A DNA stretch of 64,000 nt, taken from positions 64,001 to 128,000 of the IMG/VR virus record IMGVR_UViG_3300032242_000488, one strand, 5' to 3'. Below the pieces are notes generated by a model that was not told the DNA's origin, made no database searches, and was given only the letters and a program-made list of their open reading frames with translations. This document shows positions 25,131 through 29,058 of this stretch, one piece after another. This DNA is from a virus. The position numbers and the translations under genes were made by a program. Numbering within the stretch: the first letter of the stretch is position 1; each line of letters opens with the position of its first letter.

Positions 25131-25363
25131 TGAACGAACTGATTCAATGTATTAACTCAGGAAAAGGTTGGGCCGCTGAACGTGCTAATATGGCATATCA
25201 AATAGGTCAAGCATTACAAGCAGGACAAGTAGGTCCTGATGAAGCAAAGGAACTGTTAGAAGATTTAGTTAGAACAGACAAGCTAGATGCAGAAGCAGAC
25301 GATATGGCTCTTAAGGCCTTGTTAGTTACTGGCATCTATGCAGTTATACAGATATGTGGGTAA
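25130..25363 (+). CDS. Hypothetical protein
   Basis: 77-aa ORF, TAATG-coupled. Confidence 0.55.
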   Translation: MNELIQCINSGKGWAAERANMAYQIGQALQAGQVGPDEAKELLEDLVRTDKLDAEADDMALKALLVTGIYAVIQICG

Positions 25364-25364
25364 T

Positions 25365-25799
25365 ATGGAACAACTAATAAACGCATTAAAAATAGCATTT
25401 GCCAGTGAATACGCATTTGCACTAAAGGCACAAAACTTTCATTGGAATACAGAAGGTCCAGATTTCTACGAGTTTCATTTGTTATTTGAAAGAATCTATG
25501 ACGAAGTCTACGGAAGTGTTGATGACTTTGCAGAAAACATTCGTAAGAGTGGCGCTTATGCTCCAGCAAGTCTAGCTAAGTTTAGTATGCTTACTACAGT
25601 TGAAGATGAGAACTCAGTTCCAGAAGCAAGAAGTATGGCAGCAGAACTATTAGCTGACAGTGACAAACTAGCACAGTTAATGGCTATGGTTTACAAAATG
25701 GCTGATGCTTCTGGCGAGTTTGGTCTAGCTAACTTCCTAGCAGATCGTCAAGATGCACATCGTAAGCACAGCTGGTTTTTACGTTCAATGTTAAAATGA
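25365..25799 (+). CDS. dps: Dps/ferritin-like DNA protection protein
   Basis: 'FHWN.EG.DF...H.LFE', 'D..AE.IR', 'H.K..W.L'. Confidence 0.9.
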   Translation: MEQLINALKIAFASEYAFALKAQNFHWNTEGPDFYEFHLLFERIYDEVYGSVDDFAENIRKSGAYAPASLAKFSMLTTVEDENSVPEARSMAAELLADSDKLAQLMAMVYKMADASGEFGLANFLADRQDAHRKHSWFLRSMLK

Positions 25800-25938: not shown

Positions 25939-26661
25939 ATGAGAGCAAATGAGTTTATAACTGAAGCATGGAGTCAGAAATACAAAAAGAGTATTAACTG
26001 CTCGCACCCTAAAGGTTTCAGTCAACGTGCCCATTGTGCTGGTCGAAAGAAACACAACGAATCAGTTGAGATGGAAATGACATGCCCTGACTGCGGCATG
26101 TGCGAATCACACGGCAATCTTAGTGAAATCAAAAAAGGTGCTAAAGACAGCAATGGCTTTACTAAGTGCTGGTCTGGATATCATGCCGCAGGTACAAAAC
26201 AAGGTAAGAATGGTTCAGTACGTAACTGTGTAAAGAATGAAAGCACAGAACTAGAAGAAGAGTTTGATCTTATAGAATCAATCATAGCTGATCTAGCTCT
26301 ACGCAATGGTGTTAACGAAGATGCTGTTTGGGAAGATTTAGAAACACTTACTGACGATGAACTATATGTGTTTGCTGTTACACAGCCAGTTAACGAAGAT
26401 TGGCAGAAAGTCAACAAACACGATAAGACTTCAGGTATGAGTCAAAAGGCAGTAAATGCCTATCGCAGAGAAAATCCAGGCAGTAAACTAAAAACTGCTG
26501 TAACAACAAAACCTAGCAAACTAAAGCGTGGTAGCAAAAGTGCCAAGCGTCGATCAAGTTATTGTTCTAGATCCGCTGGACAAAAGCGTATGCATCATAT
26601 AGATTGTAGTAAAACTCCAGACAAAGCAATTTGTGCGGCACGCCGTCGCTGGAACTGCTAA
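25939..26661 (+). CDS. Basic Cys-rich modular protein (putative internal head protein)
   Basis: MRANEFITE leader; modules separated by xxE sites. Confidence 0.65.
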   Translation: MRANEFITEAWSQKYKKSINCSHPKGFSQRAHCAGRKKHNESVEMEMTCPDCGMCESHGNLSEIKKGAKDSNGFTKCWSGYHAAGTKQGKNGSVRNCVKNESTELEEEFDLIESIIADLALRNGVNEDAVWEDLETLTDDELYVFAVTQPVNEDWQKVNKHDKTSGMSQKAVNAYRRENPGSKLKTAVTTKPSKLKRGSKSAKRRSSYCSRSAGQKRMHHIDCSKTPDKAICAARRRWNC

Positions 26662-27221
26662 TGCGAGCAAAGGAAATATTTGAAAACTTTGCTGACGGTA
26701 AACATCCTGAAGATAAGGGTGATAGCAAACGTTATCATGTACCAACTAAGGCTAGTGTAAGCACACTACGCAAAGTTGCCAAGCAGGGCGGACGTAAAGG
26801 ACAATTAGCACATTGGATGGCTAACATGAAAGCTGGTCGTGCTAAACATGAAAGCACAGAATCCGCAGATCCTAAAAAAGAAAAACTCATACACGACTTT
26901 CTTAAGTTTGCCACTAAGAAGCTACAATTACGTTCTGATTTTACAATAGAGTTTAGTTACGATACTAAGTCTGCACAAGATGAACATCACACAGGTGCAT
27001 ATAACTTTAAAAAGAATCATATGACTGTGTATTCTGCACATCGTAATCTAATAGATATATTACGTACATTATGCCACGAGCTAGTACATGCCAAACAAGA
27101 TCAGTTAGGACAACTACATCATCACGATGCTCCGGGTAGCCCACACGAAGCACAAGCAGATGAGATTGCAGGATATTTGATTAAGTTATACGTGAAGAAA
27201 CATCACGATATAATACAATGA
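26661..27221 (+). CDS. Protein with a C-terminal HExxH metallopeptidase-like domain
   Basis: MRAKEIFE leader; 'LRTLCHELVHAKQ...E.QAD..AG'. Confidence 0.6.
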   Translation: MRAKEIFENFADGKHPEDKGDSKRYHVPTKASVSTLRKVAKQGGRKGQLAHWMANMKAGRAKHESTESADPKKEKLIHDFLKFATKKLQLRSDFTIEFSYDTKSAQDEHHTGAYNFKKNHMTVYSAHRNLIDILRTLCHELVHAKQDQLGQLHHHDAPGSPHEAQADEIAGYLIKLYVKKHHDIIQ

Positions 27222-27324
27222 ACACACCTTAGGACCGGTACTTGTTACCGAAAGTGTGCGCCGGCTGCTGGCGCAGGACGGCCCGATTCGCTACCGGGAA
27301 TCCTGGAAGTGAGCACTTTTTTTT
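27221..27324 (+). ncRNA. Putative structured ncRNA (unassigned family)
   Basis: GC-rich intergenic island with five stems, possible pseudoknots and a U8 tail. Confidence 0.6.
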
Positions 27325-27326
27325 GG

Positions 27327-27333
27327 GTAAATA
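27327..27333 (+). promoter_or_regulatory. Possible late promoter (GTAAATA)
   Basis: Only 4 nt upstream of the desaturase ATG; would give a near-leaderless mRNA. Confidence 0.4.
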
Positions 27334-27337
27334 CTAG

Positions 27338-28036
27338 ATGATTATATTATATACGTTAATACTAACACATATTACTATTGTTTGCGTTACCCTGTTCCTA
27401 CATAGAGGACAAGCACATAAAGGATTTGTTTTTAATCCTGTGCTAGAACACTTTATGCGCTTCTGGTTATGGTTAACAACAGGTATGGTTACTAAGCAGT
27501 GGGTAGCGATACACCGCAAGCATCACAGATTCAGTGATGTTGAGGGTGACCCGCATAGTCCACATGTATATGGTATATGGCGTGTATTCTTTAAGGGCGC
27601 AGGATTATATCATGATGCTAGTAAAGATGCAGTTATGGTTGCTACTTACGGTCAAGGTACTCCTTATGATTGGGTAGAGCGTAACATTTATACACCCCAC
27701 AGTCGCCTGGGCATTCTCCTAATGTTAGTTATAGACTTGTTGTTATTTGGGCCTTTAGGTTTAATAGTGTGGGGTGTACAAATGATATGGATTCCGTTCT
27801 GGGCCGCTGGTGTTATTAACGGAATAGGACATTGGTGGGGATATCGTAATGGCAAAACTAAAGATCATAGTCGTAATATTAGTCCTTGGGGCATTGTTAT
27901 TGGTGGCGAAGAACTGCATAACAACCACCACTTGGACCCAGCGAGTCCCAAGCTCAGCAAAAGGTGGTTTGAGTTTGATATAGGCTGGATGTGGTTTACA
28001 GTATTTAAAACACTTAGACTAGCAAAAGTTAGATAA
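27338..28036 (+). CDS. Delta-9 fatty acid (acyl-CoA) desaturase
   Basis: His boxes HRGQAH, HRKHH and HNNHH; TM helices. Confidence 0.92.
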   Translation: MIILYTLILTHITIVCVTLFLHRGQAHKGFVFNPVLEHFMRFWLWLTTGMVTKQWVAIHRKHHRFSDVEGDPHSPHVYGIWRVFFKGAGLYHDASKDAVMVATYGQGTPYDWVERNIYTPHSRLGILLMLVIDLLLFGPLGLIVWGVQMIWIPFWAAGVINGIGHWWGYRNGKTKDHSRNISPWGIVIGGEELHNNHHLDPASPKLSKRWFEFDIGWMWFTVFKTLRLAKVR

Positions 28037-28797: not shown

Positions 28798-29058
28798 ATG
28801 GGCTCACGTACCTATGGACCAGAAGAAAAGGCCAAACTAGAAAGACTCATCAACGAAGGTTGTCAAATCAAATATGAGATTGAAAGCCTGTCAGAAGGAC
28901 TCAAAGAAACTGTTAAAGCAGTTGCCGAAGAGTTAGAAATCAAACCCGCACTAATTAACAAAGCTATCTCAATTGCCCATAAAGGTAACTGGAATGACGT
29001 ATTCAGCGACTTTGACGATCTTGAAACACTGATCGTAACCGTAGGCAAGGATAAATGA
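28798..29058 (+). CDS. Small dsDNA-binding protein (T4 DsbA/GapR-like)
   Basis: Helical 'EIESLSEGLKETVKAVAEELEIKPALINKAI..AHK' pattern. Confidence 0.55.
   Translation: MGSRTYGPEEKAKLERLINEGCQIKYEIESLSEGLKETVKAVAEELEIKPALINKAISIAHKGNWNDVFSDFDDLETLIVTVGKDK

Follow-up and report, generated by a model that had tools for sequence, protein, structure and literature searches.

What is encoded in the short gap between a 196-amino-acid open reading frame (ORF, 26631-27221) and a fatty-acid desaturase gene (27338-28036) in the 64,000-nucleotide stretch of IMG/VR virus record IMGVR_UViG_3300032242_000488 analyzed here (the whole of which we call the window)? The gap, 27221-27324, stands out in composition, with a GC content of 0.55-0.60 across 27200-27320 against about 0.40 in the surroundings. 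The window is part of a 167.5 kb record with an estimated completeness of 46%, and its source is a large tailed phage, marked by tail-fibre, DNA polymerase B and other genes. A reading made from the sequence alone (the sequence-only reading) had described a GC-rich island of about 100 nt, as the sequence indeed has, and had proposed that it forms a compact structured non-coding RNA. That proposal holds: the element is a real folded non-coding RNA, conserved and covarying, on the + strand. The complementarity of its conserved bases suggests that it base-pairs with the 23S ribosomal RNA (rRNA) of the host, to which we assign a probability of about 0.45.

The element and its parts lie in the window as follows.

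27219-27317, + strand: the whole RNA element, one member of the family, about 97 nt (covariance model R1, 107.7 bits, E 1e-26)
27223-27227, + strand: 5' strand of helix P1, CACAC, partner of 27254-27258, with compensatory changes at 5 of 5 pairs
27226-27237, + strand: block S1, ACCUUAGGACCG, with CCUUAGG invariant, unpaired in the P1-P2 internal loop and antisense to 23S 1920-1931 (E. coli numbering)
27236-27250, + strand: P2 hairpin, CGGUA-CUUGU-UACCG, stem 27236-40/27246-50, resembling the antisense of 23S helix 69 and dispensable in some members
27254-27258, + strand: 3' strand of P1, GUGUG, partner of 27223-27227
27259-27273, + strand: P3 hairpin, with a covarying 4-bp stem (27259-62/27270-73) and the 7-nt loop GGCUGCU (27263-27269)
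27274-27278, + strand: 5' strand of helix P4, CAGGA, partner of 27301-27305; the model holds three pairs, paired in 95.8% of cells, and 3 of 3 covary
27282-27298, + strand: P5 hairpin, CCCG-AUUCGCUAC-CGGG, whose stem (27282-85/27295-98) covaries
27287-27294, + strand: loop block S3, UUCGCUAC, within P5, antisense to 23S 1930-1937 and so abutting the S1 target
27301-27305, + strand: 3' strand of P4, UCCUG, partner of 27274-27278
27306-27315, + strand: 3' tail, GAAGUGAGCA, with AGUGAGC nearly invariant and pairing with the P5 loop possible (UUCGCU/AGUGAG)

Folded as a single sequence, the element does no better than chance (z = -1.2, with no significance on either strand), so the support for the fold is comparative. 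A blastn search of loci fetched by way of the two flanking proteins gave about 25 homologues, whose position relative to the desaturase gene varies. Covariance model R1 (seed alignment A2) was built from 24 similar members; it required a seed made by hand and realignment to the model. From a plain MAFFT alignment, RNAalifold recovered P3 only. Further members came from three pattern scans of IMG/VR, after removal of chance matches, and the family comprises at least 190 distinct sequences from about 229 loci, in jumbo-phage contigs of IMG/VR; the member counts given in this text (100, 123, 125, 188 and 195) are among the matches listed in those scans.

Alignment A3, fitted to the covariance model, holds 99 distinct sequences from 100 loci. 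In it 89.2% of the cells are paired, as against 61% in shuffles and 31-56% when the partners are slid by one to three columns, and the covariation score is 0.498, the slid controls reaching at most 0.096. Homologues with covarying stems were among the checks that the sequence-only reading had set for its proposal, and both were found: changes occur on both sides at 20 of the 21 pairs, and each of the five helices covaries. All five stems had been placed correctly from the one sequence. Because A3 had been fitted to the model, a mutual-information scan of all column pairs was also run, with average-product correction, and its top 11 pairs all belong to the five helices. P3 to P5 contain 53 G.U pairs versus 5 A.C; therefore the + strand, which is also the strand of the flanking genes, is the folded RNA.

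Two pseudoknots made with the 3' tail had also been proposed. The one with the P5 loop can be formed in 94% of cells, but at none of its six pairs do both sides change, and no non-nested pair stands out in the mutual-information scan. For pairing of the P3 loop with the tail, the loop variants GGCCACU and GGCUACU improve the AGUG register and two others (GGCUUCU) do not. Both pseudoknots are possible, and the one with the P5 loop is compatible with the data.

Across the family the 5' part consists of P1 (ACAC../..GUGU) around the unpaired (A)CCUUAGGAC and the P2 hairpin, while the 3' part consists of P3, with 4-5 bp and a GGCUGCU loop, of P4 bearing P5, with the loop AUUCGCUAC in most members, and of the tail AAGUGAGCA. 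Where P2 is missing, CCUUAGGAC is the terminal loop of P1, so that in these short variants S1 is simply a hairpin loop. P4/P5 occurs in at least four versions, with AGUCGUGC, CCGGGAAU and UUAACGCCAUUC as alternative P5 loops. Four stretches are invariant or nearly so (CCUUAGG, GGCUGCU, CGCUAC and AGUGAGC), and the stems vary freely; the P3 stem, for instance, is 98.7% paired with swaps among GC, CG and AU, while its loop is identical in 120 of 123 members, which were found without requiring that loop. Cis-pairing takes up part or all of S1 in some subgroups, as CCU/AGG, CCC/GGG or CCUUAGG/CCUAAGG. The last of these pairings is seen in a subgroup of six loci, in which CCUUAGG pairs with a downstream CCUAAGG (an rRNA-sense copy of the target) that replaces the ACAC/GUGU P1; it could be an auto-masked form of the recognition block.

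All members were compared with the E. coli K-12 rRNA genes rrsH and rrlH. Measured by its longest exact stretch, every one of the 125 members matches antisense rRNA over 11-17 nt (mode 12); the same measure against sense rRNA, and for shuffled elements, has its mode at 9, and 12 nt or more was reached by 14 of 1000 shuffles. S1 with its flanks, (CUA)CCUUAGGACCG(UUA), is the antisense of 23S 1917-1933, giving a 17-nt match in one member, and the P5 loop UUCGCUACC is complementary to 23S 1929-1937. Among 188 members the 5' domain covers 23S 1922-1930 in 96-99% (outer limits 1921/22-1930/31) and the 3' domain covers 23S 1929-1937 in about 80%. The targets of S1 and S3 abut at G1930/U1931, within 23S 1920-1937 at the junction of helices 69 and 70, which is one of the most conserved stretches of bacterial 23S rRNA, and these sites are the best hybridization sites of the two blocks across the whole of 16S and 23S rRNA. 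G1930/U1931 lies inside the homing site of I-CeuI and corresponds to the R2 insertion site in 28S ribosomal DNA (rDNA). P2 looks like a diverged antisense copy of 23S helix 69. Two kinds of variation agree with pairing to 23S: the S1 variants CCUUAGGGCC and CCUUGGGAC, with two A-to-G changes, retain the pairing with 23S by way of G.U, and CUAC is present in S1 in 33 of the 38 members that lack CGCUAC in the P5 loop, versus 15 of 76 others, a pattern of exchange that could also be explained by shared ancestry. The sequence-only reading had drawn the structure around these conserved loops correctly and overlooked their antisense match to rRNA.

The matches of the other conserved stretches are shorter. 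CGGCUGCUG of P3 complements 16S 519-527 (the 530 loop), and the P3 loop alone is antisense to 23S 1070-1076; for a 7-9-mer such matches are no better than those of shuffled blocks. We give the 530-loop match little weight, because blocks of 7-10 nt match no better than their shuffles and because an element of Vibrio phages, described below, is without it. The match of a tail 7-mer to the antisense of 23S 1099-1105 is at chance level, and the P5 loops of types 2-4, taken alone, are no more complementary to rRNA than shuffled blocks are. In a search for a target within the phage genome, no cluster of sense matches was found.

In the genome the element behaves as a single-copy gene and not as a repeated signal. 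A search of 100 related loci (883 kb) with R1 gave exactly one match per locus, and there is one match in the 167.5 kb record of the window itself. Five records of 278-356 kb, of which two are at least 96% complete, have one strong match each; in genomes of 300-350 kb there is one strong copy. One complete relative of 352 kb has a second, minimal copy of 76 nt (76943-77018; 27 bits with model R2), consisting of ACCUUAAAC.., P3 with GGCUGCU, an 8-bp stem with the loop UCGCUAC and the tail AAGUGAGCA, without P1 and P2. The immediate neighbours in the window are these.

26631-27221, + strand: upstream ORF of 196 amino acids, without a Pfam family, whose UGA stop (27219-27221) overlaps the element's first bases
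27209-27214, + strand: TATAAT within the upstream ORF, without conservation and unlikely to be the promoter of the element
27317-27324, + strand: T8 run, no conserved part of the family, a U-tract following only 34 of 195 members
27338-28036, + strand: fatty-acid desaturase gene (Pfam PF00487), the downstream neighbour here and no constant partner

An ORF on the same strand has its stop codon 3-13 nt ahead of CCUUAGGA, or at a UAG inside it, at about 80% of the loci. Because an ORF stop directly precedes the element, the RNA is most likely the tail of the upstream message, and would probably be transcribed together with that gene. A transcript start from the TATAAT had been suggested instead; the hexamer is there, but it has no counterpart upstream of other members, a promoter scan at the element found no promoter, and the upstream ORF runs into the element. 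The T8 run, noted earlier as following the tail, is likewise real here, but U-tracts follow only 17% of members and no terminator is called. Downstream of members there are promoter-like sequences, ATAAATA in 49, the sigma-70-type TTGAC..TAnnnT in 27 and TTGCTT in 14 of 195, and after a few of the members there comes a separate GC hairpin that has a U-run. The spacer to the next gene (27325-27337 in the window, and in other members too) often carries ATAAATA, which is T4-late-like, TTGAC-N17-20-TAnnnT, or TTGCTT, which resembles a MotA box; these motifs suggest a T4-style system of early, middle and late promoters in these jumbo phages. Neighbouring genes differ between genomes: the desaturase gene is immediately downstream in 13 of 125 loci and within the three nearest downstream genes in 21 of 125, and among the flanking genes of the family loci no reverse transcriptase, recombinase, ligase or nuclease is a constant neighbour.

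The element matches no known RNA family. Rfam 15 (4227 models) at gathering thresholds has no match in the 64 kb window, which bears out the earlier statement that the RNA could not be assigned to a known family; at E up to 10, region 27100-27450 gives chance-level matches only, with no ribozyme family among them, and 16 loci with other members (13) and with the Vibrio-phage elements yield two transfer RNAs (tRNAs) and nothing else. ARAGORN, run on the whole window for tRNA and transfer-messenger RNA, finds 0 genes, and the 5' and 3' ends of the element do not pair with each other, so that it had rightly been said not to be a tRNA. No intrinsic terminator (a GC hairpin with a U-tract within 0-2 nt) is called in 26900-27500. 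Box H/ACA or C/D motifs are absent from the conserved columns and no small nucleolar RNA (snoRNA) or archaeal-type guide RNA of Rfam is matched, and the two footprints on 23S overlap at 1929-1931. What the element does share with loop-presenting antisense RNAs is the placing of its recognition bases in loops closed by covarying stems, with significant complementarity to 23S.

A blastn search of 50,697 cultured phage records found no homologue of the element itself. When 23S 1900-1950 was used as the query against cultured phages, Vibrio phages PWH3a-P1, qdvp001, R16F, 10AMN and P018-4 were found, all five with a 22/24 match in an unannotated gap, antisense relative to the surrounding genes. 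On the coding strand their element has GCCUUGGGACCGUUAUAGUUAUGGC, antisense to 23S 1907-1930 (22 of 24), and then the loop GUCGCUACC, antisense to 1929-1936; its order is AAGAAUUAGCCUUGGGACCGUUAUAGUUAUGGC, a different middle hairpin, a hairpin with GUCGCUACC in its loop, and AAUAGAGCUUUU. It is the top match of both R1 and R2 in those genomes, at a noise-level 14-16 bits, and we judge that the coincidence of this top match with the site found by blastn is not noise. A search of the whole T4 genome gave a model match inside gene 45 on the wrong strand, which was rejected as noise. In R16F and 10AMN the element lies just upstream of tRNA-Arg(UCU), the same tRNA that the species 2 RNA of T4 follows.

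NC_020863, about 80,879-80,989, - strand: Vibrio-phage element of PWH3a-P1, in an unannotated intergenic gap
NC_000866, 71053-71171, - strand: T4 species 2 RNA (rnaD), following tRNA-Arg(UCU)

The invariant 5' hairpin of rnaD, CCGG-GUCGCUA-CCGG, contains the 9-mer GUCGCUACC, which is invariant in the rnaD of five Tevenvirinae. Like the present RNA, rnaD is a small phage RNA; it lies near tRNA genes, has the 9-mer in common with the Vibrio-phage element and contains the P5-loop core UCGCUAC, but it is without the S1 block, the GGCUGCU hairpin and the AGUGAGC tail. The model scores it at 7.6 bits (E 0.5, not significant), and only the P5-like hairpin is shared. T4 species 2 RNA may be a distant cousin of the element, a link that we treat as a lead only.

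From the fold, conservation, copy number and complementarity described above we infer a pairing, with its stage and its effect, of the following kind. A stand-alone RNA of about 97 nt, encoded in single copy, would be made at the 3' end of the upstream gene's message and may be cut out of it. Its hairpin domains P1/P2, P3 and P4/P5 would form a scaffold that holds the four conserved stretches unpaired, and two of these, S1 as (A)CCUUAGGAC(CG) and S3 as UUCGCUAC, jointly form the antisense of 16-18 contiguous bases of 23S rRNA, 1920-1937, a stretch that takes in the 3' side of helix 69 together with the beginning of helix 70. Since this stretch is paired within the mature 50S subunit, binding is most plausible while 23S rRNA is nascent or unfolded, or with free 50S subunits, and by it the phage RNA would interfere with, or exploit, the assembly or use of the large subunit. 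In a more specific form, which we consider rather unlikely, the RNA would be a trans-acting guide or clamp, with two loops seizing the helix 69/70 junction and perhaps a third the 16S 530 loop, that, during infection, blocks or reprograms large-subunit assembly or subunit joining, or recruits a phage enzyme to the site.

Several points weigh against pairing with 23S rRNA. The target, 1920-1937, we take to be base-paired in the mature subunit and not freely accessible, and the local fold agrees. S1 and S3 are crossed, the 5' block pairing with the 5' part of the target, and because of this order they cannot act as one continuous antisense strand. In about 20-30% of members the P5 loop has no clear complementarity to the 23S site, and in the S1 variant CCCUAGGAC a pair with rRNA is lost and the compensation occurs in cis. 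Taken alone, the short blocks S2, S3 and S4 hybridize to rRNA no better than shuffled blocks, and the 530-loop match of the P3 loop is absent from the Vibrio-phage version, whose model match of 14-16 bits equals the noise match in T4 gene 45. The conservation of S3 and of the tail could be explained by their pairing with each other. Finally, because the members of the family are related, the complementarity seen in 188 of them counts as one evolutionary event.

Among other explanations, it is possible, although we think it unlikely, that the element works as a structured RNA, alone or in a particle with protein, and that its conserved loops are needed for its tertiary fold or for binding a phage or host protein; its likeness to rRNA would then be a relic, for example of a captured, inverted piece of rDNA, with no use in pairing. 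The ability of the P5 loop and tail to pair mutually, in 94% of cells, would fit such a scaffold, as would the partial or complete cis-pairing of S1 in some subgroups and a P3 loop that is invariant yet has no convincing target, and P2 resembles a diverged antisense copy of helix 69, as a captured fragment would. A relic is expected to decay, yet here conservation is highest at the complementary bases, and it is the stems that turn over; moreover, two separate blocks have targets that abut, conservation extends to the AC of CGCUAC, which lies outside the loop-tail pairing, and the distant Vibrio-phage version shares the 23S-antisense blocks, with a different loop at the P3 position and a loosely similar tail. 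Improbable, in our view, is a cis-acting element of the transcript end, such as an unusual terminator, a put-type signal for processive antitermination, a barrier against 3' exonucleases or a processing site between transcription units: genomes of 300-350 kb have hundreds of operon ends but one copy of the element, a U-tract follows 17% of members and no terminator is called here, and a terminator or stabilizer needs no invariant loops and would leave the rRNA complementarity unexplained. This explanation would account for the position directly after a stop codon, for the promoter-like sequences that often precede the next gene (49, 27 and 14 of 195) and for the GC hairpin with a U-run after a few members.

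The sequence-only reading had itself offered a ribozyme, or a riboswitch-like leader of the desaturase gene, and apart from the conserved structure nothing was found in favour of either. A new class of self-cleaving ribozyme would be compact, with several helices and invariant unpaired nucleotides, as the element is, it occurs in a phage, and nested pseudoknots are possible; but no ribozyme model of Rfam 15 matches even at E up to 10 (hammerhead, HDV-like, twister, twister-sister, pistol, hatchet or hairpin), the strand order is, by inspection, unlike the HDV-like fold, and nothing marks a cleavage site, so that we hold this to be very improbable. To a riboswitch or leader acting on the desaturase gene we give almost no credence, even though the element is here 21 nt upstream of the desaturase start with U8 after it, and an alternative hairpin over 27287-27313 ends 3 nt before the U-run. 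Only 13 of 125 loci have the desaturase gene immediately downstream, and close relatives have the element elsewhere, be it upstream, far upstream or downstream of the desaturase gene or among other neighbours altogether; promoters often intervene, U-tracts are rare, and the 125 loci show neither a coherent set of downstream genes nor a conserved expression platform. The varying gene context thus largely refutes this reading. Because neighbours are diverse and U-tracts rare, a dedicated desaturase leader is largely excluded and a plain terminator is argued against.

Pairing with 23S rRNA would place the element near several known systems, each of which it resembles in part. Plasmid antisense RNAs that present loops, such as CopA/CopT of plasmid R1 and RNA I/RNA II of ColE1, and those base-pairing small RNAs that are cut from the 3' ends of messenger RNAs (mRNAs), are likewise short folded RNAs with recognition bases in stem-closed loops or located at the 3' end of a coding transcript; the predicted target here is host rRNA rather than an mRNA or a replication primer, and recognition is split over two loops for neighbouring parts of a single target. 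The box H/ACA and box C/D guides for rRNA of eukaryotes and archaea, which are snoRNAs or their archaeal small-RNA counterparts, are also structured RNAs in which two short guides complement a conserved site in rRNA. The element has no H, ACA, C or D box, its guides are in crossed order, and its two duplexes would leave no unpaired target base between them; we know of no rRNA guides of either type in bacteria or phages.

Viral elements that pair an mRNA with rRNA include the termination upstream ribosomal binding sites (TURBS) of caliciviruses and the epsilon enhancer of T7, which pair with accessible small-subunit rRNA and in this way hold ribosomes for the next ORF. The element too lies beside a stop codon and has bases complementary to rRNA, but it would mainly target buried 23S rRNA, occurs once per genome, and often has a promoter between itself and the next gene. 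In group II introns the loops EBS1 and EBS2 pair with adjacent parts of one target in crossed order, much as S1 and S3 would, and the 23S site in question (G1930/U1931) corresponds to a hot spot known for mobile introns (the I-CeuI homing site, and the R2 element in rDNA). The element lacks the intron core (domains V and VI), and none of its constant neighbours is a reverse transcriptase, recombinase or endonuclease.

Known phage takeovers of translation work by way of proteins, tRNAs and ribosomal proteins, but to our knowledge no phage RNA targets rRNA itself, and our literature searches found no description of such an RNA nor of this one. If the pairing is real, it would be a new mode of host takeover, aimed at an rRNA that hardly varies across bacteria and carried by at least 190 distinct sequences, one per jumbo-phage genome, with the stretch recognized by the homing endonuclease I-CeuI as target. 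The RNA would then be a natural broad-range binder of 23S rRNA and possibly a tool, and the enzyme-recruiting version, if true, would make it the first guide of snoRNA type among bacteria and their phages. With the analogous element in cultured phages of Vibrio natriegens and V. parahaemolyticus the idea is directly testable at the bench, and the shared hairpin would be a first lead on T4 species 2 RNA, whose function is listed as unknown.

Some further observations concern hosts and neighbours. True copies of the element were found in contigs CAZHPL010000057.1 and NZ_JBBAKG010000001.1, which are binned as metagenome-assembled genomes of Bacteroidota (Lishizhenia, and Haliscomenobacter with a 183 kb contig and a second contig); this is probably phage DNA placed in the wrong bins, a weak hint of the host at best. 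A match in a Planctomycetales metagenome-assembled genome proved to be a chance match to the search pattern. The desaturase of the window (PF00487, 27338-28036, + strand) has at least 597 relatives in IMG/VR at 74-94% identity and is a widespread auxiliary gene in this phage group. A ferritin/Dps-like protein (PF00210; phrog_3636, "DNA binding protein"), encoded at 25338-25799 (+ strand) in the window, recurs upstream of the element at 19 loci. Downstream, at 28798-29058 (+ strand), an 86-amino-acid protein matches phrog_12534 and, more weakly, phrog_639, a "transcriptional regulator"; its gene often has a sigma-70-like promoter of its own and is within the three nearest downstream genes in 42 of 125 loci. 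The protein may be an AsiA-like factor.

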